Assembly: GCA_018662925.1 (NCBI GenBank)
Contig: JABJFC010000057.1
Span: 19,194-83,193, forward strand
DNA length: 64,000 nt
Reading direction: 5' to 3'
Origin: Alphaproteobacteria bacterium
Lineage (GTDB): Bacteria; Pseudomonadota; Alphaproteobacteria; 16-39-46; JABJFC01
In this document: in pieces, positions 26,783 to 51,521 of the stretch
Layout of the letters: each line of letters begins with the position of its first letter
Numbering within the stretch: the first letter of the stretch is position 1
Notes under the pieces: model-generated
The model's database searches: none
Seen by the model: the letters and a program-made list of their open reading frames with translations, nothing else
What the model was told of the DNA's origin: nothing
Made by a program: the position numbers and the translations under genes

Positions 26783-26844
26783 TTATACGTATCCCATACC
26801 TTTCAACATTACTCCCTACACACTGACCACAAACCACACTATTA

Positions 26845-26879
26845 TGGGATAGCATGGGATTCTATGGGAGTCAATGGGA
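26845..26879. promoter_or_regulatory. Four TGGGA boxes at exact 10-bp phasing (ATGGGAtagcATGGGAttctATGGGAgtcaATGGGA) 60-100 bp upstream of mraZ - candidate MraZ operator / Pmra
   Basis: read directly; TGGGA at 26845, 26855, 26865, 26875; E. coli MraZ is known to bind phased TGGGN direct repeats in its own promoter. Confidence 0.5.
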
Positions 26880-27123
26880 AAATAGCATTTCCAGGTGGGA
26901 TTATAGCCTACTTTGACGGGCTAGTGCTTTTAAATCACTGTGGATAAAGGCAAAAAAGAATTCGGCAGGCGAATATGTTTTTTCGCCCTCCATAATTTCA
27001 GCCAAGAGGAAAGCTTTAGATCCATCGTGACGGGCACACACTGGATGCATCGTGAGGGGAAGGCTCTGGATGCAATCATATACTGCGTTATCCGGCCCAT
27101 ACTGCGTTATCCGGTCCAAAATT

Positions 27124-27375
27124 CGTCTTCCCGGCCATTAGGAATTCTTAGCAAGCCGAAGGCGCGCTTTAGAATTTCTTATGAGCGCGGGATCCAGGGG
27201 CCGGGAGTAAGAGCTTTGAGATCAAATCCATATTATTGGGCACTTTTGGCACACTGATCTCTGGTTACTAATCCCTGAAAGCTGGATACCGAGATACCAA
27301 CTCACTCTAAGACTTGCCGGCTTAAGACGCCGGCTCGCCAAGAGTTCGTAGGTTCCGGCATGACGGCTATTTAAT
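27124..27375. repeat. Dispersed repeat family, composite copy: module X (27124-27196, …ccgtcttcccggccattaggaatt…cttatgagcgcgggatcc, with internal hairpin) plus module Y (27289-27375, …ataccaactcactctaag…ccggcttaagacgccgg…ggttccggcatgacgg)
   Basis: aligns with 55430-55620 (both modules, swapped order), 9517-9575 (Y), 46349-46385 (partial Y, inverted), 63186-63210 (X tail). Confidence 0.7.
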
Positions 27376-27455: not shown

Positions 27456-28355
27456 GTGGAAGCTAAACAATCCAAGATAATTCATTTCATTATTTTTTTG
27501 TCTCTATTTCAGGCCTTATTATTGGCACAGGCCCCAATTTGTAAAGCATCCATCTGTGAAGAGCTTCGTTCGGAAGTGGATATTGACTTGGAACAGGCAG
27601 AGGTACTTTACACGAAAGAAAATGGGTATGTGGTATTAAAGGAGGGTCCTTATTATGCTTTATCCTTTAATGGAGGAGAGGATGTGCAGGGAACAAAAGA
27701 TCCTTCAGACGTTACTGAGTTGCCGCTTTTGTTTGCACGCTTGATGTCTATGGGGGTTTTGTATCCCAAGCATATCAAAAGAGTTCTTATGGTGGGTTTG
27801 GGGACAGGTATGTTGAGCAGTTACTTGCACCACTATTTCCCCGAGGCACACATTACCTGTGTTGATCACAATCCATTGGTTATTGAGGCGGCCAAGGCAT
27901 ATTTTGGGGTGCCAGATACAAGTCGGCATAAACTCGTTCTTGCGGATGGATTGACGTTTTTGAAAGACACCCAAGAAAAGTATGATCTAATCTTCTCTGA
28001 TGCTTACATGGAATTTATTCCAACCCATATGGCAACTGCTTCCTTTTATGCACTCGCTAAGGAGAAGTTGGCACCAAACGGTGCCTTGGTCCAAAATGCT
28101 ATTCCCTCCAAGCATCTCAATATTCAGCAAGTGCGGGAGAAGCTGAGTCAAAGTTTTGCACATGTGGATACGTACAATGAAGATGTGGCAGGAAATGCCC
28201 TGCTAGGAGAGGATGAAGAAGGGGATAATACAATTCTCATTGCTTATAACGGTCCCAAAATATCCAATAAAAGTTTCAAAAAGAGAGCAATAAGGCTTCA
28301 AAAGCAACATGGATTTCGTTATGGTCTGAGAGAGTTGTTGAAATGTTGGATGTAG
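27456..28355 (+). CDS. Secreted spermidine-synthase (polyamine aminopropyltransferase, PABS)-like protein, paralog 1
   Basis: GTG start with RBS; N-terminal signal peptide; PABS-like N-domain then Rossmann core VLMVGLGTGMLSSYL…ITCVDHNPLVIEAAKAYFG…YDLIFSDAY…NGALVQN. Confidence 0.6.
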   Translation: MEAKQSKIIHFIIFLSLFQALLLAQAPICKASICEELRSEVDIDLEQAEVLYTKENGYVVLKEGPYYALSFNGGEDVQGTKDPSDVTELPLLFARLMSMGVLYPKHIKRVLMVGLGTGMLSSYLHHYFPEAHITCVDHNPLVIEAAKAYFGVPDTSRHKLVLADGLTFLKDTQEKYDLIFSDAYMEFIPTHMATASFYALAKEKLAPNGALVQNAIPSKHLNIQQVREKLSQSFAHVDTYNEDVAGNALLGEDEEGDNTILIAYNGPKISNKSFKKRAIRLQKQHGFRYGLRELLKCWM

Positions 28356-29288
28356 GTGGGAGAAGCATTTTTACGGAGATGTTATTGTAGAGGGGCAAAG
28401 GTGAAATTGAGAAGAACTAAACTTTTCTTTGCAGGGGTTATTATTTTTCTAGGTTGTCATGGGAGTGTCCAGGGACAGTTTGATAAAACTCTTTGTAAGA
28501 AACAAAGTAAGGAACTACACTTTGATATTAAAACGCAGGATTCTTTGAGTGGAGATAGGTCAGGAAAAAGCTCTTTTTCGGTTTCAAAAAAAGGAAAATA
28601 TATAAATTTTTCTTTTGGTGATAATGTCCAGCGAATAAGAAATTCAGAGGATCCCACAGAACTATCACAATTTTCGGCTCGTTTGATGACGCTAGGCCTT
28701 TTATATCCAAAAAAATTAGAAAAGATTCTTTTTATCGGTTTAGGAAGTGGGCAAATAAATTCCTACCTTCATCAATTCGCTCCAGAGATAGAGATAACCT
28801 GTTTAGAGGTTAAATCTGAGGTCGTTAAGGCTGTGGAGAATTATTTTGGTTTGTCTCCGGATCAGAAAATCGTGACCGAGGATGTGTGGGAACACCTCCA
28901 AAATACGAAAGAAAGATACGATATTATAATTTTGGATTTTGACGTAATATCTTCCCTAGGCAAACATTCCGGTGATCTGTCTCTATATAGGCTGATACGA
29001 AGTAAATTGGTAACCGGCGGTGTTTTTGTTGGAAATTTTCTCACAAAAATTGATCGTTCTCCCAGTGACATACGAGAAGTCCTTTTGAAGGTTTTCGATC
29101 ATGTTGATGGATTCAATGTACGGGAAGAGCCTAGTAAATTTGAGGAACAAAGAAGTGATGATGCAATTTTAATTTCATACAACGGCCCTCCTAAAACAGA
29201 AGAAATACTTTTAAAGCGAACGTTGGGTCTTCAAAAAAAATATAACTTCCGATACAATATCAGTGAACTTTTTTTGTGTTGGTACTAA
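28356..29288 (+). CDS. Secreted PABS-like protein, paralog 2 (start uncertain: GTG 28356 / GTG 28401 / TTG 28407)
   Basis: ILFIGLGSGQINSYL…ITCLEVKSEVVKAVENYFG…YDIIILDFD…GGVFVGN; hydrophobic signal-like N-terminus. Confidence 0.55.
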   Translation: MGEAFLRRCYCRGAKVKLRRTKLFFAGVIIFLGCHGSVQGQFDKTLCKKQSKELHFDIKTQDSLSGDRSGKSSFSVSKKGKYINFSFGDNVQRIRNSEDPTELSQFSARLMTLGLLYPKKLEKILFIGLGSGQINSYLHQFAPEIEITCLEVKSEVVKAVENYFGLSPDQKIVTEDVWEHLQNTKERYDIIILDFDVISSLGKHSGDLSLYRLIRSKLVTGGVFVGNFLTKIDRSPSDIREVLLKVFDHVDGFNVREEPSKFEEQRSDDAILISYNGPPKTEEILLKRTLGLQKKYNFRYNISELFLCWY

Positions 29289-29299
29289 TGAGGTTAATA

Positions 29300-30241
29300 A
29301 TGAAAAATCGCAAAAATGAAGGTGGTTTAGAACGCTATAGCTGCTTTGTTAAGTACTGTTTTATTGTTTTTACTATTGTTACTACTTGTTTTCAGTTGGC
29401 AACAGCATCGGATACTGCAAATCCCTTAGCTTGCTATCAACTTTCAAGCCAACCAAAATTCAATCTGAAGAAGGCTGACGTCATTGATGTAATTCAAGGA
29501 AAAGATATTTCGGTATATGTTTTAGAAGTTGGTCCCCATATAGGAATGTCATTCGAGAGAAAACATGATATTCAGTCTATGTATAACCCCTTAGATAGTA
29601 CTGAACTGGCTATGAGTTATGGGCGGATCATGACTCTAGGAGTTCTGTATCCTACGACAAAAGAGATTAAGAAAGTTCTTATGATAGGCCTAGGAGGGGG
29701 TAGAATTACCAGTTACTTGAGTCAGTATATGAAAAACACACATTTCACTGGGGTTGAGCTTAGTCCTGAGGTTATAAAGGTTGCTCAGCAGTATTTTGAC
29801 GTAAAACCTTCAGAAAAAATTAAGATCGTAGAAAGTGAAGGTTGGAAGTTTTTGAAGGGGAGTAAGGAAAAATTTGATTTAATTTTCTTAGACGCATATT
29901 GGAAGGAAATTCTTCCTGAACATCTTAAAGGTGAAGCGTTTTATAAAGAAGTGAAGAAGCATCTTGTTTCTGGTGGAGCGGTTGTTCAAAATGTATTCAA
30001 TAAAAGGTATTTTTTGTCAGAGGCGGAAGATGTAATGACAAAGCTTTTTGATCATGTGGATATTTTTGAGAGGGGACATAATTTTATTTTAATTGGGTAT
30101 GATGGGCCTCTAAAAACAGAAAGTGAGAAAGTAACACTAGCCGAGACATTGCAGAAAAAATATGACTTTCGATATAACCTTAAGGATTTATTTGAATGTT
30201 TTTTCTACGAAAGTATTCCAGACGCGCCGAGGAAGAACTAG
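29300..30241 (+). CDS. Secreted PABS-like protein, paralog 3 (ORF from 29276; ATG 29300 has GAGG RBS)
   Basis: VLMIGLGGGRITSYL…FTGVELSPEVIKVAQQYF…FDLIFLDAY…GGAVVQN; signal peptide. Confidence 0.6.
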   Translation: MKNRKNEGGLERYSCFVKYCFIVFTIVTTCFQLATASDTANPLACYQLSSQPKFNLKKADVIDVIQGKDISVYVLEVGPHIGMSFERKHDIQSMYNPLDSTELAMSYGRIMTLGVLYPTTKEIKKVLMIGLGGGRITSYLSQYMKNTHFTGVELSPEVIKVAQQYFDVKPSEKIKIVESEGWKFLKGSKEKFDLIFLDAYWKEILPEHLKGEAFYKEVKKHLVSGGAVVQNVFNKRYFLSEAEDVMTKLFDHVDIFERGHNFILIGYDGPLKTESEKVTLAETLQKKYDFRYNLKDLFECFFYESIPDAPRKN

Positions 30242-30458: not shown

Positions 30459-33400
30459 ATGCTGAATGGATCCAATACAAAAACAATTATAGCTCTATGT
30501 TTTAAGAGTCTGACAATATTCAATTATTATTTTTTTATTGTCGCTTTCTTGCTGATTCCTGAATATTCTCTCAGCACTCGTATTGGAATTTTTGAGGAGT
30601 CAGACGAACCTCCCCCAGGCTTCGAAGCTGTAGATGTTGCTGAAGAGACTAACTATGTGGAAGCCTATTTTTTCGGGAATTTGCTTGGTAGTTCTCTAAT
30701 GACATACCAAGATAACAAGGTAGTTATTAAAAATCCGGGCCTACTTGTAAAGAAAATGAAAGGGCTTAAAGATCCTGAAGCTGTCCTTAAAGCATTAACA
30801 GGAGAAATAGCTGGCAACTCAGAGTTAGCATGTAGTAATGAAAATGCACGACAACCCTGTGGAATTTTAAGTCCCAAAGTAGCTGCAGTTATTTATGACA
30901 GATTCAAAAGAGAATTGTCTATTTTTGTTAATGCAGATCTCTTAGACAAAAAAGAACTTGAATTTGATCAACTGCCACGATCAACGAGTAATTTTTCTTT
31001 CCTGAATAATGTTTTTGTGAATTCGACAGGGAGTAAACGAGAAAGGAACTATACTGTTAACAATAGAAATGTTTTTGCCTATAAAGAGGCATTTATAGAT
31101 ATTGACTCGAGTTATTTCCTGGATGAAGGTGATACGTCTTTATCTACTGTTGGTGAAAAGCGTTTTCGTTTCAGTACAATTACTGGAAATTTGAATAGAT
31201 GGAATAAGACATTTCAGATTGGAACTGTGAGAAATGAAGGAAGTAACTTTCTATCATCTCAGCTTCTTATAGGAGGTAAGTTTTTTACCACACTTAATCA
31301 ACTTACAGACCTAAATAGCGCCCAGTCGACTCCAATAGAGGTTTTCCTAGCTTTACCCGGGGAGGTCCAAGTTTTTAGGGATAAAAAACTTCTGTACGCT
31401 CAAAACTATACGGCTGGCAATCAGTTCATCAATACTTCTAGTTTTCCAGCAGGAAATTACGATGTTCAAATCAAAATTATTGACATAAATGGCAACGTAA
31501 CGGAAACAACACAGGCTTTTGTTAAGACGGAAGTTATTCCTCCATTTGATTATCCATTTTACTATGGGAGTTTTGGATTTATTGAAAATACAGCAAATAG
31601 AACTCAAGAGCTGTTTCCTCAGTTTTTTAATGATTTGGTTGGGCAGATGGGGACGGCTGTAAGAGTAGCTAACTCTTGGGCCTTAGCTGAAAATGTTCAG
31701 TTGGCTCGGAGTGTTGCTGCATCAGAGTCTAGTGTAATTTTTGTCGATTCTGACATAACGTTAAAGGTTGGTGGGTTAATTACAACAAAGAAAAATTATG
31801 GATACTTTTCGGATCTACGTTATAGAGCAAGTTTTTTTTCTGGAGGCGGAAATTTTCTTAGTATGTTTGGTCCAACAAAGGCTCAAAGGAACAAAATAGC
31901 TTCTGAATTTGACCCTGTTTCTGGGACGCGTGTAAGATATTCAGCCTTTCTTAATTTGCCTCTATATAAAGGAAATTTTTTGTTCAACACTAGTTATGGA
32001 AAATCAGATGTTGGGACAAAGAATAGAGCTTACACTGCCACCTTTAGTTATCCTCTTTACAGGGAAAGTGGCATTTTTGCAAATTGGTTAACAAGCTATA
32101 ATGTTAGAAATAACGACAGGCTCTATATATTTGGTATAAATGTGAGTTTTTCCCATGATAATTGGAGACACGCGTTTCGGGGGACTTACAATAGGGAGCA
32201 AGATATTGAAAATCAGCTTAGTGAACGTGATACACAGGATTATACTTTAAGTTCTGCTTGGACAAAATCTGAATCTGGGCGCTATGATTTGGGAGCAGGA
32301 GTGACTGGGAGTCATACTTCAGCGTCTGATTCTTTAAGGCCATCCGTATCATATAGCGATAATTTTGGGCGCTTTCAAAGCAGTGCGTCTTATAGCAAAC
32401 CTATTTCTGGGGCAATTAGTCGGCAGTTTAGTTTTTCGGGGGACACAAGTTTTATTGCTGCAGAAGAGAAGAGCGGTTTCTCGAACTCTTCCCGTAATAC
32501 TACGGGGATTTTTGTGGATGTAATATCTTCTGAGGCTGACCAGGAATTTGAAGTGCTCATTAATAACCGCCCTGCTCAAGTTATTAAGTCAGGAACTGCT
32601 GCATTCATACAACTGTCACCGTTCAAGACTTATATGGTTTCTATTAACTCCTTAGCGGGTAATCTGTATACGTATAATCCTGAACCAAAGTTTGTCACTT
32701 TGTATGAGAGTAATATTCAACCACTTTCGTGGGAAGTGCAAAAAGTGTTTTTGCTTATTTCACAGTTTGTAAGGCCTGATGGAAGTTTTGTCCAATATGC
32801 AGGTGTGGAAGGTGGAGTTGATTTAGCCCAAACAGATGAAAATGGGTATATTCAAGTTGAAATTCCTGAGGGGACAGAAAAATTGTTTGTTGAACCCATT
32901 GAAGGAGCTTTTTGTGAAGTTAAGGTTGGCGGGTTGGCTCCGGAAGATAACTATGTATATAAGGAGAGTATAGTCTGTGTTCCTACAAAGAAGAGGCCAA
33001 AAAGAATTGATAATAAAAGAGAGAATAAATATGAAGGGGAAGTTCTTTTTGAAGAACTTAAGAAGGATGAAACTTCAGAGGGGAAAATAGAAGGTGATAT
33101 ACCTGTTGTTACAGAAGAGGAGATTCAATCACCATCGCAGAAACAGCCAGATCATTTGAATGCTATCGATCCTGGAAAGACTAGTTTTGAGGAAGAGTCC
33201 ATGGAAGGAGTTCAAGATCAAAAAGAGATGGCAGAAGAGAGTATTCAAGAAGAAGTCGGTGCAGGAGTTTCTTCGCAAGAGAATATTCAGCCTGAAGATA
33301 ATATCGAGGATCTTGATGGAATTTCTTCAAAATCGAAACCAGTGATTGAAGAATCGGTGCACAGAGAAATACCAATGATTGATATCGATAAAAATATTAA

Positions 33401-34043
33401 TAAAACAACTGAGAACAAGAAAGCAACAAGATTTAGTAAAGAATTAGTTTATCAAGAAGGGAAGCCAGCTATTTCACCAAAACGAGCTAAGCCTATGAAT
33501 AAGAAGTTTAAGAAAGAACTGGTTCATCAAGAAGGGAAATCAGAAGGAGCTGAAAAGAAGGGTACATCTACAAACAAAAATTTTGAGAAAGAATTAGTTC
33601 ATCAGGAGGGCAAATTAGTTGATCTAGTAAAACAAGGCAAGGCATCGGGCAGACAGTCTGAAAAAGAACTGGTTTATCAAGTGCGTGATTCTTCAGTGAA
33701 CAGGGCAAGTGGTCAAGCAGTAAATCCTACTAGAGTGACTAAATCTGTAAAACGCCTAAAGGAGCTGGTATATCATGAGGTAATTCCTGCTGTTGAGAAA
33801 GCTATGAACAAAAAATCTACGCAACGCCCTGAAGTCGGTCCGACTAAGAATAAGGTTTACGGAGAGAATAGTCTATTAGGGATAGTTCCTAAAGAAAAAG
33901 CCAAAAAAGGTATCAAAACAGGGCCCATCCCAAAAAAGGCTGTGTATTATGAAAAAGGACATCCTGAAAGTCTTGGAGAAAAGACACCTTCCTCGAATAG
34001 AAAAGAGCTCGTTTATCGAGAAGTTTCTTTTCTAGAGCGGTAG
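30459..34043 (+). CDS. Giant (1194 aa) outer-membrane usher-like protein with C-terminal ~200-aa extension carrying six KELV[YH]QEG-type repeats
   Basis: N-terminal hydrophobic segment. Middle region (…GEVQVFRDKKLLYAQNYTAGNQFINTSSFPAGNYDVQIKIIDINGNVTETTQAFV…) resembles the conserved usher segment seen in the bona fide usher at 41041 (…VEVFINESTRL…GPFLIEDLPVISGEGDIKIVTTDLLGRRQEV…). Beta-rich Ser/Thr/Asn/Tyr composition. Repeats at ~33430-34040. Confidence 0.4.
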   Translation: MLNGSNTKTIIALCFKSLTIFNYYFFIVAFLLIPEYSLSTRIGIFEESDEPPPGFEAVDVAEETNYVEAYFFGNLLGSSLMTYQDNKVVIKNPGLLVKKMKGLKDPEAVLKALTGEIAGNSELACSNENARQPCGILSPKVAAVIYDRFKRELSIFVNADLLDKKELEFDQLPRSTSNFSFLNNVFVNSTGSKRERNYTVNNRNVFAYKEAFIDIDSSYFLDEGDTSLSTVGEKRFRFSTITGNLNRWNKTFQIGTVRNEGSNFLSSQLLIGGKFFTTLNQLTDLNSAQSTPIEVFLALPGEVQVFRDKKLLYAQNYTAGNQFINTSSFPAGNYDVQIKIIDINGNVTETTQAFVKTEVIPPFDYPFYYGSFGFIENTANRTQELFPQFFNDLVGQMGTAVRVANSWALAENVQLARSVAASESSVIFVDSDITLKVGGLITTKKNYGYFSDLRYRASFFSGGGNFLSMFGPTKAQRNKIASEFDPVSGTRVRYSAFLNLPLYKGNFLFNTSYGKSDVGTKNRAYTATFSYPLYRESGIFANWLTSYNVRNNDRLYIFGINVSFSHDNWRHAFRGTYNREQDIENQLSERDTQDYTLSSAWTKSESGRYDLGAGVTGSHTSASDSLRPSVSYSDNFGRFQSSASYSKPISGAISRQFSFSGDTSFIAAEEKSGFSNSSRNTTGIFVDVISSEADQEFEVLINNRPAQVIKSGTAAFIQLSPFKTYMVSINSLAGNLYTYNPEPKFVTLYESNIQPLSWEVQKVFLLISQFVRPDGSFVQYAGVEGGVDLAQTDENGYIQVEIPEGTEKLFVEPIEGAFCEVKVGGLAPEDNYVYKESIVCVPTKKRPKRIDNKRENKYEGEVLFEELKKDETSEGKIEGDIPVVTEEEIQSPSQKQPDHLNAIDPGKTSFEEESMEGVQDQKEMAEESIQEEVGAGVSSQENIQPEDNIEDLDGISSKSKPVIEESVHREIPMIDIDKNINKTTENKKATRFSKELVYQEGKPAISPKRAKPMNKKFKKELVHQEGKSEGAEKKGTSTNKNFEKELVHQEGKLVDLVKQGKASGRQSEKELVYQVRDSSVNRASGQAVNPTRVTKSVKRLKELVYHEVIPAVEKAMNKKSTQRPEVGPTKNKVYGENSLLGIVPKEKAKKGIKTGPIPKKAVYYEKGHPESLGEKTPSSNRKELVYREVSFLER

Positions 34044-34184: not shown

Positions 34185-34442
34185 ATGATTAAGGTTACTA
34201 TATTATTCTTTTCATTTTTATGTACATTTTGTTTGATAAATGAAGAGGTGTTAGCCAAAAATATAACATACGGTATTTTAGCTCCAGAATTCTCTAAAAG
34301 TCAGCATCAGAAGCTTAAGGAGTGCAACCTAACGTGTTCAGTTTACTTGGGGGGAGCGTGTGCTCAAGTGCCTAATTGCAGCTTTTGTTGTGATAGCCAG
34401 TATGGCCCAGGGACAGAAATACTTCACAATTTTAGTAGTTGA
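34185..34442 (+). CDS. Small secreted Cys-rich peptide (85 aa, 8 Cys in the mature 60 aa)
   Basis: signal peptide MIKVTILFFSFLCTFCLINEEVLA; CNLTC…GGAC…PNCSFCC pattern; AT-rich context, weak RBS. Confidence 0.3.
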   Translation: MIKVTILFFSFLCTFCLINEEVLAKNITYGILAPEFSKSQHQKLKECNLTCSVYLGGACAQVPNCSFCCDSQYGPGTEILHNFSS

Positions 34443-34504: not shown

Positions 34505-35239
34505 TTAGTTTGTTTGCCCTGCACTTTTTTTATCTAGAGTCTCTGCAACCGTTTCAAAAGAGACAGGACCTGCTTCAGGGATTTCAAAAGTGTAAGTGTT
34601 TCCAGCATAGAGGCGTTTGCCAGTTACCCCTGTTTCCACACATTTATCAGCTGAAGTGCATTGTTGGATCTTCCCAAAAAGCAGATTTGTATTGCCGATA
34701 TTTTTTACGGTAACAGACTTGCCATTCCGAATTGCAGAAATTTTTGCAACTGGTTTTATAGGAGGTATTACTAACTCAACTAAAAAAGCAACATTTACAC
34801 GTAAAAATAGTCGTTTTTCACCTTGTGAAACTGGTGCTACACGCTTTAGTTGTCCCAAAACGGGCATCACCTTAATTCTGTAGATGCGTTCTTGTTCACC
34901 TGGCGGTTTTAAAAGTGAAACACGAATGCTTCTCCTTTGATTCGGTGCAAGGACTAATTTTGGAGGTGTCAGAAGTAAGCCAACTTCCTTTGGATTTCGA
35001 CTTTCTATGGAACGTTCGTTCGGCATGCCAGGATTCTCAATAAGTTTTAGAGTAGTGCCAACGTATGACTTTTTATCTTTTTGTTGGTTGAAAACTGAAA
35101 TATCTTGATACGGCTTATCTTTTAATTTGAACTGTGTCCTTAATGGAGAGACGATAATACGTGCACACGCATGATGAACACACAGCGTACACGCTAATGT
35201 CATAAAAATTACTTTTGAAAAAAAACTTCGAAGCTGCAT
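34505..35239 (-). CDS. Periplasmic pilus chaperone (PapD/CsuC-like)
   Basis: signal peptide; IIVSPLR…, LLLTPPKLVLAPNQRRSIRV (chaperone …PP.f.l.p…q.iR motif), overall similarity to the chaperone at 46490. Confidence 0.6.
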   Translation of the reverse strand: MQLRSFFSKVIFMTLACTLCVHHACARIIVSPLRTQFKLKDKPYQDISVFNQQKDKKSYVGTTLKLIENPGMPNERSIESRNPKEVGLLLTPPKLVLAPNQRRSIRVSLLKPPGEQERIYRIKVMPVLGQLKRVAPVSQGEKRLFLRVNVAFLVELVIPPIKPVAKISAIRNGKSVTVKNIGNTNLLFGKIQQCTSADKCVETGVTGKRLYAGNTYTFEIPEAGPVSFETVAETLDKKSAGQTN

Positions 35240-35463: not shown

Positions 35464-36117
35464 ATGCGTTATAGTGATTGGAAAGGCCTTTGTTTTCAAG
35501 ACGTGAGGGTGGCTGTTAGGGTTCTTTCAGTGGCACTTTTTCTCTGCTATTTTATTGGTATTTCGTTTTCACAAGCTGGCTCTTCTGGAGGAGGAGGTGG
35601 TGGTGGAGGTGGTGGTCCAGGCGGGGGAAGTCCTTCGAAGGTTATTCCAGTGGGTGCCTCGATAGGGCTCCAAATTTTCATTCAAGATTCTAGTATTGAT
35701 GGACTCACTTTTGATGAAATATTAGATTCAACTGCGGGTGACGTTACGGCTCAGGACAAAATATGTGTCTTTAGCAATGTGAATTTTGGAGGTTTAGCTA
35801 GGGCGTACACAGTGACTGTAACGAGTGATAATGGGGAGTACAAGCTGTTGAATGCAGATGCTGCAGCTGCGGCAACGCCTGGTGGGCAGATGGTATATTC
35901 GATCCAATTTGCCGATAATGTGAATGGCGCTGGTGCACAACAGGTGCCCGAGGGCGCAACATTGACGGGGTTTCAAGCAACTTCTGTTGGTAAGTGTAGA
36001 GGAAACAATCCTGGAAATAATTCTGTTGTTATAGCTACAATTCTGGAGTCGGATTATCAAGCAAAGCTGGCTGGTGACTATCTTGATAATATTACTGTGA
36101 CAGTTGCCTCGCCGTAG
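35464..36117 (+). CDS. Divergent SCPU/Csu-type pilin-like secreted protein with (Gly)n tract
   Basis: signal peptide; G12-PGGG run; IGLQIFIQDSSIDGLTFDEI…ICVFSNV…GKCRG…YLDNITVTVASP (two Cys, C-terminal Y.D.ITVTV as in SCPU pilins); paralogous to 36500/37264. Confidence 0.5.
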   Translation: MRYSDWKGLCFQDVRVAVRVLSVALFLCYFIGISFSQAGSSGGGGGGGGGGPGGGSPSKVIPVGASIGLQIFIQDSSIDGLTFDEILDSTAGDVTAQDKICVFSNVNFGGLARAYTVTVTSDNGEYKLLNADAAAAATPGGQMVYSIQFADNVNGAGAQQVPEGATLTGFQATSVGKCRGNNPGNNSVVIATILESDYQAKLAGDYLDNITVTVASP

Positions 36118-36499: not shown

Positions 36500-37102
36500 A
36501 TGTCAGGAAAGTTTAGTAGCGTTAAACGTTTAAATGTATTTGCTGCAAGTGCTTTAGGCTTGGGGCTGCTCTTGTCTTCGTCAACAGGCATTAAGTCGGC
36601 GTCTGATAGTGATGATATAACTCTGACATTGGCTGTTGGACAACAGATCTTTATACAAGATTCCAGCATTGATAACATAGATTTTGGTACTGTTTCTGAG
36701 GTTACAAGCGGTGATTTAGATGGAACAGATGATCTATGTGTTTTTAGCAATGTGAAGTCAGGCACAGGTAATCAAACTAAGGCCTTTAAGCTTACACTTA
36801 CCACAGCAGAGACGGCAACCTTTCAATTGGAAGAGGACGGTGGAGCCGGCACGATAGCCTACTCTGTGGAATGGATTGATGAAATCGGAGGATCATTTGG
36901 TGATGGTGGAAATAGTACTGTAACGTATAACACCGCTGTTGACGATCAAACTGCGACAACCATTGGTCAGTGTCGAGGGTCGGGTGGAAATGACAATACG
37001 AAGTTGTTTATCCGAATACTTGAGGCAAACTATACTGAATTAGATGCTGCAACGTACAATGGTACTATTACTGCAGTGGTCGCTCAAGCTACGGGCACCT
37101 AA
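36500..37102 (+). CDS. SCPU/Csu-type pilin-like secreted protein, tandem paralog B1
   Basis: signal peptide; VGQQIFIQDSSIDNIDFG…LCVFSNV…GQCRG…YNGTITAVVAQATGT; ~80% identical to 37264. Confidence 0.5.
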   Translation: MSGKFSSVKRLNVFAASALGLGLLLSSSTGIKSASDSDDITLTLAVGQQIFIQDSSIDNIDFGTVSEVTSGDLDGTDDLCVFSNVKSGTGNQTKAFKLTLTTAETATFQLEEDGGAGTIAYSVEWIDEIGGSFGDGGNSTVTYNTAVDDQTATTIGQCRGSGGNDNTKLFIRILEANYTELDAATYNGTITAVVAQATGT

Positions 37103-37263: not shown

Positions 37264-37866
37264 ATGTTGAGGAAACTTCGTGGTATAGAATCGAGAGTTG
37301 TGTTGGGTGCAAGTTTTTTGGCATTTCTGGTGGCTTTTTTTCCTCCCACAGGCCTGAAGACTGCATCGGATAGCGATGACCTCACCTTAACAATCGCGGT
37401 CGGGCAACAGATATTTATACAAGATTCCAGCATTGACAATTTGGATTTTGGGACGTTAATTGAGTCTACAACTGGTAATTTAGATCAATCTGACGATCTT
37501 TGCGTTTTTAGCAATGTGAAGTCAGGAACAGGTAATCAAACTAAAGCCTTTAAGCTTACACTTACCACAGCAGAGACGGCAACTTTTCAACTGGAAGAAT
37601 CCGGTGGGTCAGGTACCGTTGCCTATTCTGTGGAATGGATTGATGAAATCGGAGGAGCATTTGGTGATGGTGGAAATAGTGCTGTAACATATAACACCGC
37701 TGTCGACGATCAGGCTGCGACGACTATTGGTCAATGCCGAGGATCGGGGGGAACTGACAATTCCAAGCTATTTGTGCGGATAATTGAAGCTAGCTATGAA
37801 GCATTGGATTCTGGGACGTACGATGGAACAATCACTGCAGTGGTCGCTCAAGCGACTGGGACGTGA
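37264..37866 (+). CDS. SCPU/Csu-type pilin-like secreted protein, tandem paralog B2
   Basis: same length (200 aa) and near-identical to 36500..37102. Confidence 0.5.
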   Translation: MLRKLRGIESRVVLGASFLAFLVAFFPPTGLKTASDSDDLTLTIAVGQQIFIQDSSIDNLDFGTLIESTTGNLDQSDDLCVFSNVKSGTGNQTKAFKLTLTTAETATFQLEESGGSGTVAYSVEWIDEIGGAFGDGGNSAVTYNTAVDDQAATTIGQCRGSGGTDNSKLFVRIIEASYEALDSGTYDGTITAVVAQATGT

Positions 37867-38007: not shown

Positions 38008-38517
38008 TTGGATATGTTTATTAGCCGGAATGGGTTGCAGTTTATTTTGTTTCTTCTAGCATCCTGTTTTGTTTCGCAATGTGCCCAGGGGAAAGTTGCT
38101 ATTTTGTCGCAGAATGGGGATGGGACATGGATGGGGACTTTAACTTTTGGGATCAGTGGATCTGGGTACAATGATTTTTGCATATATCAAACAAAAAAAA
38201 GCAAAAAAGCTAAATCCAAAGGGCAATACCGTTATTCAGTAACCATATCGAGCGATAACAATTTTAATTTAGTAGAACCTGTTTCTGGGGAAAAGATCCC
38301 TTATCGAGTTTACTTTACCGATAAGGCCTCAGACGTTGGTCGGCGTGAAGTATCTAACCGTGTTCCTATTAATAAACTGACAACTTCGATTTCAAAGGAG
38401 AAGAAATGCAAAGAGAATGCTCGATTGCGTGTGATAGCCCCTTCTAAGGGATTTGAGCTAGCTTTGTCTGGGAGGTACTCGGACCACTTAACGGTCACTG
38501 TAGATTCTGATGAGTAA
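38008..38517 (+). CDS. Divergent pilin-like secreted protein (possible SCPU-type subunit)
   Basis: signal peptide; two Cys; C-terminal YSDHLTVTVDSDE resembles SCPU C-terminal strand. Confidence 0.4.
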   Translation: MDMFISRNGLQFILFLLASCFVSQCAQGKVAILSQNGDGTWMGTLTFGISGSGYNDFCIYQTKKSKKAKSKGQYRYSVTISSDNNFNLVEPVSGEKIPYRVYFTDKASDVGRREVSNRVPINKLTTSISKEKKCKENARLRVIAPSKGFELALSGRYSDHLTVTVDSDE

Positions 38518-38689: not shown

Positions 38690-39589
38690 ATGGTGAAAAC
38701 ACGGCTATTTTATGAAATTATGTTGCTGGTTTTAGTGCTGGTGTGGCCTGTGGCAGGATTTGGAGCCGATTTTGGCCCTGTTTCTGGGGAAATTTGCCAG
38801 AATCTATATAATCAGCCCCCAGCGGATCCAAAGCTGGCTAATTTGGTTGAATATCGCGCCTCTTCTCAGAATCCAGTCTATGTTCTTGAACAAAATCAAT
38901 ATCTTATTATGTCATTCGGGGCTGTGCATGACCTTCAATCCATGTATAATCCCAAAGATGAATTGGAGGTTCCTCTTGTTTATCAAAGGATTATGAGCAT
39001 TGGGGCTGCCTATCCAAAAAATTTGAAGAAGGTGCTTATGCTGGGCTTGGGGGGAGGCCGTCTGACCCAGTATCTGCGTCAGTATCTGAAAAGAGCTGAA
39101 TTTACAGTTGTGGAACTAGATCCAGCTGTTATTAGCGTGGCCAAGGCGCATTTTGGGGTTCAGGAAAAGGATAAGCATCTTAAAATTGTCCAGGCTGATG
39201 CATGGGAGTATCTTAAAGATTCTAAAGACAAATTTGATCTCATTCTCGTGGATGTTTGTGTGAGTGACACAGTTCCTCCACAGGTCAAGTCGGCAGATTT
39301 CTATAAAGAGGTAAAAGCCCATTTGGCAAAAGGCGGGACCGCTGTTCAAAATGTTTCCCTAAAGCACTATTATTTGGGGGAAGCTGAGGCGGCTATGAGA
39401 GAAGCTTTTGGCGGCTTTGATTCCTTTGAAACCGATATGAACTTTATCCTTGTGGCTCCAGAAATGATCACGAAACATTCAGGTGTTCTTTCCTATCGTG
39501 CCAAGAGTCGTCAAAAGAAGTATTCTTTTCGATATCCTTTGGGCGAATTACTAGGGTGCTTTCATCGGAAAGAACCCATTTCCGACTAA
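38690..39589 (+). CDS. Secreted PABS-like protein, paralog 4 (ORF from 38669; ATG 38690 follows GGGGGAG)
   Basis: VLMLGLGGGRLTQYL…FTVVELDPAVISVAKAHFG…FDLILVDVC…GGTAVQN; signal peptide. Confidence 0.6.
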   Translation: MVKTRLFYEIMLLVLVLVWPVAGFGADFGPVSGEICQNLYNQPPADPKLANLVEYRASSQNPVYVLEQNQYLIMSFGAVHDLQSMYNPKDELEVPLVYQRIMSIGAAYPKNLKKVLMLGLGGGRLTQYLRQYLKRAEFTVVELDPAVISVAKAHFGVQEKDKHLKIVQADAWEYLKDSKDKFDLILVDVCVSDTVPPQVKSADFYKEVKAHLAKGGTAVQNVSLKHYYLGEAEAAMREAFGGFDSFETDMNFILVAPEMITKHSGVLSYRAKSRQKKYSFRYPLGELLGCFHRKEPISD

Positions 39590-39758: not shown

Positions 39759-40265
39759 GTGGTGGTCATGTTGAATAAATATTTAAGTATTATTACTTTA
39801 TCTATTGTTTTATGTGCATTTTCTGAGGCGCAGGCGTCGGGGGTGAATGGCTCTTTTCAAGTATCTGCGACTGTTTCGGCTTCTTGTTCTGTATCAACTA
39901 ATGATCTAAATTTTGGAAATTATAATAGCGGTCAAAATGGCGATTTGGATGCGACGGGACAGCTGGGAGTAGCCTGTACCAACGATACTTCCTATACAAT
40001 TGATGTGGGAACGGGATTATATGGGAACGGATCTAGCAGGAAATTGAAGAGTGGCAATTCGGCGACGGCATCACTGAACTACCAAATTTATAAAGACGCA
40101 GGCAGAAATAGTGTCTGGGGCGAAGGATCAGGCGGAGCCAGTAAAGTAGCAACCGGAACGGGCGGACAACAAAGCCACGCTATGTATGGTCGGATTCCCG
40201 CGGGACAATCGGGAATGCCCACTGGTGCGTATTCAGATCATGTAATCGTCGAGGTAACATTTTGA
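39759..40265 (+). CDS. Spore coat protein U (SCPU) domain pilin (CsuA/B-like)
   Basis: signal peptide; SCSVSTNDLNFGNY…GVACT…LNYQIYKD…VWG…YGRIPAGQ…GAYSDHVIVEVTF. Confidence 0.8.
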   Translation: MVVMLNKYLSIITLSIVLCAFSEAQASGVNGSFQVSATVSASCSVSTNDLNFGNYNSGQNGDLDATGQLGVACTNDTSYTIDVGTGLYGNGSSRKLKSGNSATASLNYQIYKDAGRNSVWGEGSGGASKVATGTGGQQSHAMYGRIPAGQSGMPTGAYSDHVIVEVTF

Positions 40266-40432
40266 TTTATAATAGTTTTTTCAGAATGTTCTCAAATTAT
40301 CTAAAATTTTAAAAAAATTTTGGTTTGTTAACCTTTTGTTAACCTTTTCACTCTAACATTAAAGATAGAGGCAAATTCTCTGACGAGAATATTGACGCAT
40401 CTTACTGTTAACAAAGGAAATACAGGAGGACA

Positions 40433-40939
40433 TTGGCAATGAAACTAAAAATGACAAGCATAGCCTTGATTCTTGTGGGAGCGCTCGTCATGGGGACTGC
40501 AAAGGCTGATTCTTCAAATGATTCTTTTCAGGTACTCGCAACTGTTGTGGCAAGCTGCACGGTGACGAGCAATGATTTGAACTTTGGCACCTATGAGGTA
40601 TCGGGGATTCATGCCTCCAGTAACTTAAATGCAACCGGCAGCCTGGATGTGAATTGTACGCAAAATATTGCCTATGACATCGGTATGGATAATGGTTTGT
40701 ATTATGGGGCTGGGGGTCGTCAGATGGAGAGTTTGACTGGAACAGATAAACTTTCTTATCAGATTTATAGAGATTCTTCTCGGTCTAGCCAGTGGGGGGC
40801 CGTTATTGGATCAAATACAGAGTCCGATATTGGTACGGGCATTATTCAGTCTCATACTCTATATGGTACTATTCCAGGTGGTCAAAGTGCTGCTGTTGAT
40901 GATTATTCGGATACGATTGTGGTTTCTGTGACTTTTTAA
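40433..40939 (+). CDS. Spore coat protein U (SCPU) domain pilin
   Basis: signal peptide; SCTVTSNDLNFGTY…VNCT…LSYQIYRD…QWG…YGTIPGGQ…YSDTIVVSVTF. Confidence 0.8.
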   Translation: MAMKLKMTSIALILVGALVMGTAKADSSNDSFQVLATVVASCTVTSNDLNFGTYEVSGIHASSNLNATGSLDVNCTQNIAYDIGMDNGLYYGAGGRQMESLTGTDKLSYQIYRDSSRSSQWGAVIGSNTESDIGTGIIQSHTLYGTIPGGQSAAVDDYSDTIVVSVTF

Positions 40940-40965
40940 CTTTTTAACCGGCATACCTTCCAATT

Positions 40966-41001
40966 CCGCCTTCTTCCCCTGTGGACGAAGGCGGTTTTTT
41001 A
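40966..41001 (+). terminator. Rho-independent terminator (CCGCCTTC-ttcccctgtggac-GAAGGCGG + T6)
   Basis: hairpin + T-tract directly after SCPU gene. Confidence 0.6.
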
Positions 41002-41040
41002 TACGATAATGCAAAAATAATGCTATAAAAACAGGGATGT

Positions 41041-43560
41041 TTGTCGTTGCCAGCCACTACACCAAAAATCTTTTTTAGACTCATTTTTGTTGTAAGTTTG
41101 CTTGTGCTTTGGGCAAAACCATCTTTTTCAAATCCCTCTCCAGCCGAAATGCAGGAGTTTTTACTTGAGACATCGGTTAACCACTCTAAACAGCCTGGTG
41201 TTGCTCTCTTTCTGATGGATAGCGAACAGCATCTCTGGGCGGATAAGGACGAGATACTGAAATGGCGACTAAAATTGCCAGAAGGCGTCTCCCCAGTTCA
41301 GTATCAGGGGAAAGAGTACTATGCCTTAGATTGGTATGAAGGCAGCAAATATGAGCTGGACTACGGTGCCATGCATGTATTTATTACGTTGCCGCCAAGG
41401 CATTTTCCTGAAACAGTTCTAAGCGATCTTCCCGAAAAGGTATTTGCCAAACTACCCGAAGATGTGGGTGGCTTTTTGAATTATGATTTTACAGGGACGC
41501 GCACGGGGACGCAGGCAAAAACCCGGGGTACGGGTGTAACAGAGCTGGGTGTCTTTCTTCCCTATGGCGTGGTGACCAATGATATTCTTTATAAAAATAT
41601 TGGAGGCAATTTTAAACCCATAAGATTAGAGAGCACCTGGACCGTTGATAATCCAGAAACGCCCAGTCGGTGGCAATTTGGAGATGCGACTGCTCGGCCC
41701 TCACCGTGGGGGGGCTCAGTCCTTTTTGGCGGTGTTAAATGGGGGACGGAATATGACATTCGGCCGGATATTGTAAAATTTCCTGTCCCAAGCTATCGAG
41801 GAAAAGCAGCTCTTCCCAGCAATGTGGAAGTGTTCATAAACGAATCAACTCGATTACGAAAGGAAGTGGAAAGCGGCCCCTTTTTGATCGAAGATTTGCC
41901 CGTTATATCTGGGGAAGGGGACATAAAAATCGTAACGACGGATCTATTAGGGCGGCGGCAAGAGGTAATTATGCCCTACTATACATCCCAGGAACTTTTG
42001 AAGCCTGGTTTGGAAGATATGTCCGTCTCGGTGGGTGTGATCCGCAGTGATTTCGGCATTGCGAGCAACCAATATACAGAGCCCATGGCCTCAGGAGATT
42101 ACAGGCTTGGGATTACGGATGATTTTACCTATGGTCTGCATACGGATATTTTAAAGAAGAGTCAGTCAGGGGGGCTTACCCTTGAGTATCTTCTCTTAAA
42201 TTACGCTATTTTGTCCAGTTCCTATGCCGTTAGCCGAGATACACGAGGGCCAGGGAGGCTGCTTTCCTTTGAGTTTTTGAGGCAGGGTAAATTCACCTAC
42301 GGTGGGAGAGGAACCTTTACGTCGCGTGATTTTTCCAGTGCAAGCACTCTTTTGACTTCTGTTGCCCCTAGTTTTACGGGGCAGGTTTCCACAGGCTATA
42401 CATTCGAAGATTTTGGGTCGTTAAACTTATCCTATACGTTGCAAAACCGGCGCTTGGAAGACTCAACAAAGTTTTTGACGCTAAGCTATACGAAAAATAT
42501 TACGAATGGTCTTAACTTTAGAACCAGTACGCTTATGAATCTTGTGGACAAAAAGCAAAATCAGATAACCTTTTCTCTCGTTTGGACACTGGACTCCGAT
42601 CATGTCTTGGCATCAAGTTATATCCATCGTAAGAATCAAGAAGATCAAAAAGTGACTCGATTCCGGAAGCGTCTCCCCACAGGCACTGGCTTTGGATACA
42701 ATATTTTGGCCCGGAAAGATGATAATAACTTTTATGAAGCAGGGCTAGATTACCAAAACAATTATGGGAAATATCGTTTTATTGGATCTCGCTTTAAGGC
42801 CAATGATAGTTATCAATTAGAGGCTTCTGGTGGGATAATCCATTATGGTGGAACAACGATTATGGCACGGCACGTGGATCAAGGATTTGCGCTTGTCGAA
42901 GTGCCAGACATGAAAGATGTGCGTGTCTATAGTAATAATCAGCTTGTTGGAACCACAAACTCTGATGGGAAGCTATTAATCCCCAATTTACGAGCCCATC
43001 AGAAAAACAAAGTATATTTAGAAACAAAAGACTTGCCTCTGGATGCTCAACTGCTAGATGAGCCAGAGCTTATCTTTGTTCCTTATTTCCGCAGTGGTGT
43101 TCGCGCTCGATTCGATGTGAAACGATCAAAGAGTGCAACGGCTCAGATCATGATGGATTCTGGCGAACCTGTTCCGACAGGGGCATCTGTTAAATTAGAG
43201 GATCATGCACAGTCGTACCCCGTGGCATATGACGGAGAAGTTTTCTTGACGGATCTGAAAGTGGGGACTTGGAAAGGTGAGGCACAGTGGAAAGGCAACC
43301 GTTGTTCGTTCACGATCCAACTGGATAAGACCGATGATCCCATGCCTTATTTGGGGGCAATAGGGTGTAAGCATCGCCTTACGAAGGAACAGAAAGCTAT
43401 TCCAGTTTTAAAGAAAGACGATGAAGCCGAAGCTGAAAAAGCTTCCAAAGATGATTCTGTAGATGGATCTAAGGGAGCTCAATCCCAGTCAGGTGAGAGT
43501 AAATTGCCAGCAGTTCAAGAACAAAAGTTGACGGACGAAACGGGGCCTCAAGATGAGTAA
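41041..43560 (+). CDS. Fimbrial usher protein (PapC/CsuD-like outer-membrane assembly platform), TTG start
   Basis: 839 aa; signal peptide; conserved usher segment …NVEVFINESTRLRKEVESGPFLIEDLPVISGEGDIKIVTTDLLGRRQEVIMPYY…; beta-barrel composition; acidic low-complexity C-terminal tail. Confidence 0.8.
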   Translation: MSLPATTPKIFFRLIFVVSLLVLWAKPSFSNPSPAEMQEFLLETSVNHSKQPGVALFLMDSEQHLWADKDEILKWRLKLPEGVSPVQYQGKEYYALDWYEGSKYELDYGAMHVFITLPPRHFPETVLSDLPEKVFAKLPEDVGGFLNYDFTGTRTGTQAKTRGTGVTELGVFLPYGVVTNDILYKNIGGNFKPIRLESTWTVDNPETPSRWQFGDATARPSPWGGSVLFGGVKWGTEYDIRPDIVKFPVPSYRGKAALPSNVEVFINESTRLRKEVESGPFLIEDLPVISGEGDIKIVTTDLLGRRQEVIMPYYTSQELLKPGLEDMSVSVGVIRSDFGIASNQYTEPMASGDYRLGITDDFTYGLHTDILKKSQSGGLTLEYLLLNYAILSSSYAVSRDTRGPGRLLSFEFLRQGKFTYGGRGTFTSRDFSSASTLLTSVAPSFTGQVSTGYTFEDFGSLNLSYTLQNRRLEDSTKFLTLSYTKNITNGLNFRTSTLMNLVDKKQNQITFSLVWTLDSDHVLASSYIHRKNQEDQKVTRFRKRLPTGTGFGYNILARKDDNNFYEAGLDYQNNYGKYRFIGSRFKANDSYQLEASGGIIHYGGTTIMARHVDQGFALVEVPDMKDVRVYSNNQLVGTTNSDGKLLIPNLRAHQKNKVYLETKDLPLDAQLLDEPELIFVPYFRSGVRARFDVKRSKSATAQIMMDSGEPVPTGASVKLEDHAQSYPVAYDGEVFLTDLKVGTWKGEAQWKGNRCSFTIQLDKTDDPMPYLGAIGCKHRLTKEQKAIPVLKKDDEAEAEKASKDDSVDGSKGAQSQSGESKLPAVQEQKLTDETGPQDE

Positions 43561-43667
43561 CTTTGTTTTTAGGTTGAAGAGGATGTTCAACTGGAGTGAT
43601 TTCTATTATTATGGGTACAATGGGGGATGTGAGTGTGTTCATGAAGAATATAAATGAAAAAAAGAAT

Positions 43668-44153
43668 CTGCATAAAACCTACATATGGTTGATCTGTATT
43701 TGTGCCATGTTTTTTGTCAGTCAAAATGCGCAGGCGAAATGTAATGGGGAGACTTGTACATGTGACGTGACAGCAGACTCCTTTTCTTTCGGAGAATATA
43801 CCCCATTTGAAAATCATTCCGTGGATTCGACCAGCACCATAAAAGTGACTTGTAGTGCCTCTGACTCTTTTAGGGCTCGGTATGTTATTTCTCTTATGAC
43901 GGGCAATTCTGGCTCCTATCGGGTTCGAAAAATGAGCAGTGGCAGATCCTTTCTCCAATACAACCTCTACACAGGGCCTTCTCATCGCGTTGTGTGGGGA
44001 AATGGGAGTCAGGGCTCCAAAAGGGTTACGGGCAGAAGTTCCGGGTCTCGGGCAGTGACCAAGGAATTTACCTTGTATGGTCGAATCCCTTCGAACCAGA
44101 ATGTGCCGGTTGGGTTTTACTCTGATACCATCGTCGTGGGGATAGATTTCTAG
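43668..44153 (+). CDS. SCPU-domain pilin (ORF from 43596; likely start at MKNINEKK…)
   Basis: signal peptide; CTCDVTADSFSFGEY…VTCS…LQYNLYTG…VWG…YGRIPSNQ…FYSDTIVVGIDF. Confidence 0.75.
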   Translation: MHKTYIWLICICAMFFVSQNAQAKCNGETCTCDVTADSFSFGEYTPFENHSVDSTSTIKVTCSASDSFRARYVISLMTGNSGSYRVRKMSSGRSFLQYNLYTGPSHRVVWGNGSQGSKRVTGRSSGSRAVTKEFTLYGRIPSNQNVPVGFYSDTIVVGIDF

Positions 44154-51224: not shown

Positions 51225-51521
51225 TAAAGCACCAAGCTTCACATAAATACATTTTATTTGTATAATGATGATGTATATATGAAATTCAATGAAAAGAAAA
51301 TGCATAAAATTCAATTGGTTTTTTGAATGTTGCTACAATATAATGTGAGTCTGGGCTTGGTTGTGCATAAATAAATTTAATGCATTGTTAAGTGTATGTC
51401 CAAGTGGCTAAAAAACTCACTTCCAACTTTCTGAAGCTTTAAATACATTCTTTCGAGGATTCGCGGCGATACTGCGATTCTTGTCTTTGTTCAGACTTTT
51501 CTGCGCGAGGATGTGAAGAAT

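Follow-up and report, generated by a model that had tools for sequence, protein, structure and literature searches.

Four predicted exported spermidine synthase-like paralogs of the methyltransferase type beside two chaperone-usher pilus clusters of an alphaproteobacterium

Why does a bacterium carry four genes for secreted, spermidine synthase-like proteins among its pilus genes? The question arises from a stretch of 64,000 nucleotides (the window) of contig JABJFC010000057.1, positions 19,194 to 83,193 of the forward strand, in the assembly GCA_018662925.1 of an uncultured marine Alphaproteobacteria bacterium. Three of the genes, PABS1 to PABS3, stand in a row before one chaperone-usher cluster, and PABS4 stands before another. 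Their products are very probably exported PABS-fold proteins of the NF037959 family. Judged by their sequences, they are best described as members of the methyltransferase branch of the PABS superfamily and not as aminopropyltransferases. The fuller proposal, that they are exported amine methyltransferases dependent on S-adenosylmethionine (AdoMet) with pilins as candidate substrates, stands in our judgement about evenly between acceptance and rejection.

The four paralogs of about 300 amino acids reported by the initial annotation were confirmed as open reading frames (ORFs) on the plus strand. PABS1 (27456-28355; 299 aa, GTG start at 27456; GenBank MBT4879942.1) encodes a putative exported PABS-fold methyltransferase-like protein. 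PABS2 (28401-29288; 295 aa, GTG start at 28401) is the most divergent of the copies, PABS3 (29300-30241; 313 aa) begins with ATG at 29300, and PABS4 (38690-39589; 299 aa, ATG start at 38690) heads the SCPU cluster. Starts were chosen by the best Shine-Dalgarno support. Use of the longer openings of the PABS2, PABS3 and PABS4 ORFs, at 28356, 29276 and 38669, is improbable, and public gene calls on identical contigs likewise give PABS2 as 295 aa and PABS3 as 313 aa. Pairwise identity among the four is 29-47%, and a neighbour-joining tree with 139 members of the family places them in a single clade. A hidden Markov model (HMM) built from them detected no fifth copy in the window or in the 10 kb beyond each end, and Rfam and tRNA scans gave no match in the region. 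The motifs, in order, are GLGTG, D137, D164, D182-A-Y, N214 and N258 in PABS1; GLGSG, E, D-V and a Post-II D-F-D in PABS2; GLGGG, E, E-G and D-A-Y in PABS3; and GLGGG, E, D-A and D-V-C in PABS4. The Post-II motifs SDAYME, LDFDVI, LDAYWK and VDVCVS agree exactly with the first reading of the sequence. The consensus [IV]TCV[DE] offered with them is correct for PABS1 and fails for the others, which read ITCLE, FTGVE and FTVVE. Several marine metagenome assemblies contain identical proteins (source samples JGI 3300025614, 3300004277 and 3300025656), as do GenBank metagenome-assembled genomes labelled 'Alphaproteobacteria bacterium', one of which includes the proteins MBT4879933-MBT4879956. One genome labelled 'Nitrospinaceae bacterium' (MBT5868694.1, locus tag HOH38_07655) also has matches to PABS4, there identical and shorter at the N terminus, and to the pilin-like gene 37264-37866; this copy probably lies on a mis-binned short contig, because every other copy is labelled Alphaproteobacteria.

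The predicted fold is that of a PABS enzyme. In the AlphaFold2 model of PABS1 (70-sequence alignment; pLDDT 91.5, pTM 0.87) an N-terminal helix, which is the signal segment, is followed by a short helix with Cys34 and by four beta strands (49-81); the Rossmann-like core comes next, and of the two helices that close the chain the final one carries Cys297. The top 50 Foldseek matches of the model in the PDB were all spermidine or thermospermine synthases, at probability 1.00 over about 250-300 aligned columns, and no unrelated fold appeared. By these predictions the proteins have the two-domain fold that defines aminopropyltransferases, with an N-terminal beta domain and a Rossmann-like core. 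Two Pfam profiles had been named in advance as informative. PF01564 (Spermine_synth, gathering score 22.9), the best Pfam family for these proteins, matched all four, with 50.5, 23.9, 42.2 and 56.2 bits for PABS1 to PABS4, the score of PABS2 clearing the threshold by a narrow margin. PF17284, the SpeE N-terminal domain profile, matched none, and the N-terminal beta domain therefore rests on structure prediction.

The N-terminal export signal, also anticipated, was found in each protein as its one hydrophobic segment, preceded by Lys or Arg and followed by small-residue sites in the hydropathy analysis. In PABS1 (27456-27551, plus strand) it comprises K4, K7 and an h-region from I8 to A26, with candidate cleavage sites, deduced from hydropathy, after AQA (before P) or after CKA (before S). 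The h-regions of PABS1 and PABS4, of 19-21 residues, are long for a cleaved signal, and the proteins may be either periplasmic or N-terminally anchored. The positive-inside rule, applied to this segment, would place the PABS domain outside the cytoplasm. Two cysteines are common to all four proteins: the first follows the signal segment within a few residues, and the second lies three to ten residues before the end of the mature chain (Cys34/Cys297, Cys32/Cys293, Cys45/Cys300 and Cys36/Cys290 in PABS1 to PABS4). In the 140-sequence family alignment the C-terminal column holds Cys only in this clade and in its nearest relative, P0006 (293 aa, E 1e-59), the only outside protein with the Cys pair and the truncated C terminus. 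This restriction to the clade suggests that the pair probably forms a disulfide, which would fit an oxidising compartment. A lipoprotein reading of PABS2 (FLGC) and P0006 (YVSC) is not claimed, the lipoboxes being non-canonical. An N-terminal hydrophobic segment is present in 68 of 85 standalone relatives, several of which have textbook AxA sites (e.g. L005, P0010 and P0013). For fused relatives a crude hydropathy and positive-inside analysis predicted the PABS domain outside in 21 of 24, and the same crude hydropathy predicted seven transmembrane segments in 15 of the 24.

As the initial annotation had suspected, the four are not ordinary cytoplasmic spermidine synthases. The acidic residue of the GxG(D/E)G motif, present as GGGDG in E. 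coli and GGGEG in T. thermophilus, is replaced by Thr, Ser, Gly and Gly in PABS1 to PABS4. This residue binds the aminopropyl amine of decarboxylated AdoMet (dcAdoMet), and its absence led to the reclassification of the fungal protein NHMT as a methyltransferase (PMC10349129). At Post-II, where the roles of the two Asp of D-[SC]-T-D-P (human Asp173 and Asp176) are described in PMC6109062, the first Asp is invariant (D182) and the second is M, V, W and V. PABS1 to PABS4 scored 58-111 bits with PRK04457 ('polyamine aminopropyltransferase'), their best NCBIfam model, 27-59 with PRK00811 and 19-48 with TIGR00417. The cut-offs are 304, 260 and 249.55, so that every aminopropyltransferase equivalog was missed and only the broad PF01564 was passed. 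From the SpeE enzymes (TIGR00417, PRK00811; PDB 3o4f, 1uir, 1inl), with which they share the two-domain fold, PF01564, the Post-I acid, the DG-motif acid and the first Post-II Asp, the PABS proteins differ in lacking the dcAdoMet-specifying acid and the second Post-II Asp, and in being predicted as exported rather than cytoplasmic.

The best solved relative by sequence is a methyltransferase. Searched against the PDB, the four-paralog profile had METTL13 as its top match (E 7e-15), and with a 70-sequence family profile METTL13 reached 5.3e-34 and 3gjy 2.2e-27; true spermidine synthases came in at 6e-26 at best, some eight orders of magnitude behind METTL13 in E-value. The matching C-terminal domain (MT13-C, PDB 5wcj) is the protein N-terminal methyltransferase of human eEF1A (Jakobsson et al. 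2018, PMC6109062). It has in common with the PABS proteins a G-L-G-x-G loop without the acidic residue (G-L-G-G-G in MT13-C), the Post-I acid, the DG-motif acid and the Post-II Asp. In contrast to the bacterial proteins, predicted to be exported, it is cytosolic, eukaryotic and part of a two-domain enzyme, and the solved domain does not align with the N-terminal beta domain of the family profile, the match starting at profile position 78. For METTL13, PMC6109062 gives Gly503, Glu524 and Asp551 as cofactor residues, by their binding of AdoHcy, and Asp575 as required for activity, with mutational data. Gly503 corresponds to the G-L-G-x-G loop, Glu524 to position 137 (D/E/E/E in PABS1 to PABS4), Asp551 to position 164 (D/D/E/D) and Asp575 to the invariant D182. 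Of the two peptide-coordinating residues (PMC6109062), Asp577 is Y/D/Y/C, kept in PABS2 only, and Asn647 is N/D/N/N, kept in three of the four. All copies retain G114, G116, G118, D/E137, D/E164, D182 and N214; that residues for cofactor binding and catalysis have outlived four old duplications speaks for a functional cofactor site. The early description of the proteins as aminopropyl- or methyltransferase-like is thus narrowed: the missing GxG(D/E)G acid, METTL13 as best relative and the kept equivalents of Glu524, Asp551 and Asp575 favour methyl, and the evidence does not favour aminopropyl. That PABS1 to PABS4 bind AdoMet or a close analogue and are catalytic seems somewhat probable; should they be catalytic, transfer of methyl rather than aminopropyl groups appears likely.

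The family to which they belong is large and poorly visible to fast searches. A word-indexed homologue search with the four paralogs returned the organism's own proteins and two distant matches only; the family became visible in an exhaustive HMM search, which gave 126 cluster representatives at E<=1e-30 and 6664 at E<=1e-10. Near relatives are either proteins of about 500 aa with an N-terminal polytopic domain or proteins of about 300 aa that begin with a signal-like segment and end in an LTDDFAPV tail. Relative P0007 matches NF037959, 'fused MFS/spermidine synthase' or, in COG-style naming, 'predicted membrane-bound spermidine synthase', from end to end (226.7 bits), whereas the PABS proteins cover only profile positions ~273-417. 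On this C-terminal half PABS1, PABS3 and PABS4 score 50.6, 53.7 and 56.5 bits and pass the cut-off of 40 bits, and PABS2, with 31.3, fails it. For this reason these three are named 'fused MFS/spermidine synthase' in GenBank and IMG, and PABS2 is a 'hypothetical protein' in GenBank. The invariant G114, G116, G118, E137, D164, D182 and N214 are common to NF037959 and PABS1 to PABS4. The latter lack the membrane half (profile ~1-270) and the LTDDFAPV tail, are unfused with no partner gene nearby, bear the clade-specific Cys pair and occur as four copies inside pilus clusters. By sequence they are best described as an unfused, Cys-pair-bearing, lineage-specific four-fold expansion of NF037959. Literature searches found no paper characterising this family in the library covered.

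The neighbours are indeed pilus genes, as first described. A TcfC/CooC_C usher and a TcfA-like chaperone belong to the cluster after PABS1-3 (cluster A), and four SCPU proteins, an Usher/PapC_C protein and a PapD_N chaperone to the one headed by PABS4 (cluster B). Two distinct chaperone-usher classes are thus each headed by PABS genes, three before the TcfC-type usher and one before the SCPU cluster, and their placement in this genome is close and on the same strand. The gaps measure 45 bp between PABS1 and PABS2, 11 bp between PABS2 and PABS3, 217 bp between PABS3 and usher A, 172 bp between the last pilin-like gene (p169) and PABS4, and 169 bp between PABS4 and SCPU1. No terminator-like site was found in the gaps joining PABS3 to usher A or around PABS4. 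A low GC content of 0.36-0.39 is common to PABS2 and PABS3 (0.36), usher A (0.379) and chaperone A, compared with 0.45-0.50 in the flanking dcw genes. The arrangement, which the initial annotation did not recognise, is new, while the proteins had already been deposited in GenBank, where an automatically assigned name misleads. The association between PABS genes and pili is so far unique to this lineage and is based on position and composition alone.

A mechanism may be proposed from these observations. The G-L-G-x-G loop would bind AdoMet together with two acidic residues, the Asp/Glu of Post-I and that of the 'DG' motif. The invariant Post-II Asp (D182 of PABS1, equivalent to METTL13 Asp575 and SpeE Asp173) would position or deprotonate the amino group of the substrate, and the methyl group would pass from AdoMet to the substrate amine. 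Since PABS1-3 head the TcfC-type cluster and PABS4 the SCPU cluster, the leading substrate candidates would be the co-encoded chaperone-usher pilus subunits, at their alpha-amino termini or at lysines. Differences among the paralogs at positions 184, 166, 194 and 196 suggest that the substrates may differ.

A number of observations weigh against exported methyltransferases acting on pili; they concern precedent, cofactor supply, substrate-side residues and gene context. Literature searches gave no bacterial periplasmic AdoMet-dependent methyltransferase, and those on secreted or membrane-bound spermidine synthase-like proteins and COG4262 gave nothing relevant to bacteria. The nearest functional parallel is fungal NHMT (A. 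nidulans AN4663), an endoplasmic reticulum-resident protein in which a seven-transmembrane domain is fused to a SpdS-like methyltransferase domain (Batth et al. 2023, PMC10349129). It methylates the N-terminal His (His1) of secreted lytic polysaccharide monooxygenases after removal of the signal peptide (PMC10349129). Its logic, an outward-facing SpdS-like methyltransferase that acts on exported proteins, with cofactor supply an acknowledged difficulty, agrees with that of the bacterial fused relatives. Its 558-aa sequence was rebuilt from the supplement of that paper, with 13 blocks damaged by optical character recognition repaired, and the numbering of I322 and E340 agrees with the paper. 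NHMT was annotated as a spermidine synthase, yet is a methyltransferase without the D/E of GxG(D/E)G, as in PABS1 to PABS4: both have a non-acidic GxGxG, GLGIG (I322) in NHMT and GLG[TSG]G in the paralogs. The Post-II D-V-F of NHMT resembles the D-A-[YF] of the family, and its architecture mirrors that of the bacterial fused relatives, unlike PABS1 to PABS4, which have no polytopic domain; in contrast to its target His1, none of the inferred pilin N termini here starts with His. However, the family profile gives the NHMT catalytic domain 86 bits, against 120 for METTL13 and 76-95 for SpeE sequences, and NHMT residues 1-235 compared with the bacterial membrane domain give -3.3 bits by hmmsearch and a probability of 0.1% by hhalign. 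NHMT was consequently rejected as a close relative, its catalytic domain being no nearer than SpeE and its seven-transmembrane domain non-homologous; because of both, it is an analogue in the same superfamily and not a member of the same family.

Cofactor supply is the weak step of the proposal. The neighbourhoods of relatives were examined at 28 loci, over 10 kb on either side or as far as the contig reached. In half of them (14 of 28: L004-L006, L008-L012, L014, L026-L029 and L031) the PABS domain is fused to, or directly adjoined by, a homologue of the membrane half, and this includes eight of the ten loci that score at least 100 bits with the four-paralog profile. No such homologue exists in the window or in the 10 kb beyond either end. 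In the nearest outgroup, at L005 (9881-12422), L006 (9869-12406) and L026 (1850-4554) a secreted PABS-like protein is found with a polytopic membrane protein of about 215 aa and a secreted M28 peptidase, the latter on the opposite strand in L026. The membrane protein is the split 'MFS' half of NF037959, matching profile positions 2-182 in L005, and the set may be a module for N-terminal processing and modification of exported proteins. An M28 peptidase partner was likewise absent from the window and the 10 kb beyond each end.

The PABS1 to PABS4 clade could do without a membrane partner if host AdoMet entered the periplasm via porins. An NTP/NDP exchange transporter (ATP/ADP translocase, TLC) is encoded 0.8 kb past the window end (L036 6642-8231; TIGR00769, 474 bits, cut-off 387), adjoining EamA and LysE transporters, and a Fic-domain protein is encoded at 37-1143 (minus strand). 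ATP/ADP translocases are a hallmark of bacteria that depend on a host, among them Rickettsiales and Chlamydiae, and Rickettsia takes up AdoMet from its host, so that the compound has to pass the periplasm. Taken together, the transporter and the Fic protein suggest that the organism is probably host-associated and possibly intracellular. Should it live in host cytoplasm, porins could let AdoMet through to periplasmic enzymes, which would account for how the clade dispenses with the membrane partner.

A non-catalytic function is one alternative. As pseudoenzymes, the four proteins would be exported PABS folds serving as periplasmic ligand-binding or scaffolding modules, for a nucleoside, a polyamine or as an aid to pilus biogenesis. 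No periplasmic AdoMet pool is known and no membrane partner is encoded nearby, PABS2 is barely above the Pfam gathering threshold, and the copies have diverged strongly. The substrate side has also changed: the family R166 is L/W/W/W in PABS1 to PABS4, PABS2 and PABS4 no longer have Y/F184, three copies have lost T194, and E196 is gone from every copy. Such losses in paralogs point either to new substrate specificities or to partial decay, and are compatible with decay to non-catalytic proteins. However, the glycine loop, the Post-I acid, the DG-motif acid and the Post-II Asp are kept in every copy, and their METTL13 counterparts are required for or contribute to activity. This retention argues for selection on cofactor binding and catalysis, and we consider pseudoenzymes unlikely.

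Exported methyltransferases could also be active and only incidentally beside pilus genes, with other envelope, secreted or host molecules as their targets. None of the 13 pilus-cluster proteins of the window has a homologue in the 28 loci of relatives, in half of which the PABS gene forms a cassette with the membrane partner and sometimes an M28 peptidase. No PABS gene occurs in four loci with usher homologues (24-27% identity), though chaperone and pilin-like neighbours are present there. The contig of P0006, the nearest clade member, has neither pilus genes nor a membrane partner, and the region of the window has received unrelated insertions, e.g. a RES-Xre pair. The functional link to pili drawn by the initial annotation was therefore not borne out by comparison, and because no relative adjoins pilus genes and the nearest usher loci lack PABS, it amounts to co-location in one lineage. 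The annotation had also said that the same paralogs in genomes lacking pilus genes would weaken the link. Relatives in pilus-free loci do exist and do so in part, being distant only (30-38% identity). Against an incidental neighbourhood stand the two chaperone-usher classes, each headed by same-strand PABS genes with short gaps, and the atypical GC content common to PABS2, PABS3, usher A and chaperone A. Moreover, the comparators are all distant, at 24-38% identity, and the P0006 contig measures only 3.7 kb. Because of this distance the pilus link is unproven rather than refuted. Incidental placement of active enzymes is in our opinion improbable, and that the pilus proteins are the substrates of the PABS proteins is itself doubtful.

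Exported aminopropyl- or alkyltransferases that decorate the envelope (lipid head groups, glycans or polyamines), which correspond to the polyamine-like decoration suggested by the initial annotation, would agree with PF01564 and PRK04457 as best models, with the Foldseek matches of the full two-domain fold to aminopropyltransferases and with the Post-II Asp common to SpeE, but are very improbable given the missing GxG(D/E)G acid and second DSTDP Asp, scores of 19-111 bits against equivalog cut-offs of 250-304, and the METTL13 match ~8 orders better in E-value than those of true spermidine synthases.

In bacteria, AdoMet-dependent chemistry is assumed to take place only in the cytoplasm, and a large family of methyltransferase-like proteins predicted to face outward challenges this assumption. 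The 6664 cluster representatives of the family are mis-named as spermidine synthases, and their single functional precedent is fungal NHMT. Four soluble, partner-free paralogs with eight adjoining pilus subunits provide a tractable entry to the family. Modification of pilins would represent a novel form of post-translational control over chaperone-usher pili; should pilins be left unmodified, the proteins still expose a systematic error of annotation, having neither an MFS part nor an aminopropyltransferase signature. Carried furthest, the exported methyltransferase proposal would amount to bacterial extracytoplasmic protein N-methylation. Four periplasmic METTL13-C/NHMT-like enzymes, freed from the membrane partner, would each serve a different pilus subunit (N-terminal donor strand or lysines) with AdoMet leaked from the host. 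By extension, thousands of 'fused MFS/spermidine synthase' proteins would be bacterial counterparts of NHMT that face outward and methylate exported proteins, their membrane half supplying the cofactor. We regard this whole scheme as quite unlikely.

Cluster A begins with usher A (30459-34043, plus strand; 1194 aa), of the alternate TcfC/CooC class (PF16967, 68.9 bits; PF15976). Its C-terminal extension of ~360 aa (32960-34043) is rich in Lys and Glu and contains about six copies of KELV[YH]xE; the Lys-rich tail could itself be a methylation target. A distant usher A homologue, P0157 (1152 aa), is similarly long. Between usher A and the chaperone lies a gene for a small secreted protein of 85 aa with seven Cys (34185-34442), which has no family match. 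The TcfA-like periplasmic chaperone (34505-35239, minus strand) matches NF011836 with E 1.2e-15 and PapD_N weakly, and its homologues adjoin usher A homologues elsewhere. Four secreted pilin-like genes, the candidate substrates of this cluster, are found on the plus strand (35464-36117, 36500-37102, 37264-37866 and 38008-38517). They have no Pfam match. The three larger proteins align with one another, and three of the genes have weak homologues beside usher homologues in L032, L034 and L035. A homologue search with 36500-37102 returned self matches only, and its AlphaFold2 model, from an alignment of only 3 sequences, reached pLDDT 30. The product of 35464-36117 has a run of at least 10 Gly right after the signal segment, with the tandem repeat GGAGGTGGTGGT at 35593-35616; its two 200-aa paralogs, mutually 75% identical, start with SDSDD and have no Gly run there.

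Cluster B (39759-44153, plus strand) is of the sigma/archaic type, as judged by PF05229, PF00577 and PF13953. It consists of SCPU1 (39759-40265), SCPU2 (40433-40939), usher B (41041-43560) and SCPU3 (43596-44153), with no chaperone in this line. The sole PapD-like chaperone (46490-47236) is encoded 2.3 kb away on the minus strand together with SCPU4 (47238-47780), and is probably the missing chaperone of the cluster. A RES toxin and Xre-MbcA-ParS antitoxin pair (44315-45384, minus strand) is inserted between the SCPU cluster and the chaperone/SCPU4 pair, and the RES gene has the highest GC content of the region (0.52). Adjoining the SCPU4/chaperone pair, positions 47910-51314 (minus strand) encode a protein of 1134 aa with a flavin-dependent (FAD) oxidoreductase region (DAO) and a weak leucine-rich-repeat match.

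Upstream of PABS1, the gap of 673 bp to mraZ contains tandem repeats at 27008-27118 (25 bp x2.7 and 19 bp x2.1), and the 105-aa ORF overlapping them (26940-27257) is probably spurious. Four direct ATGGGA repeats with a 10-bp period, where none would be expected by chance, occupy 26844-26879 in the divergent intergenic region, immediately upstream of the minus-strand gene mraZ. These lie about 570 bp from the PABS1 start and presumably resemble the TGGGN-N5 MraZ operator described for E. coli.

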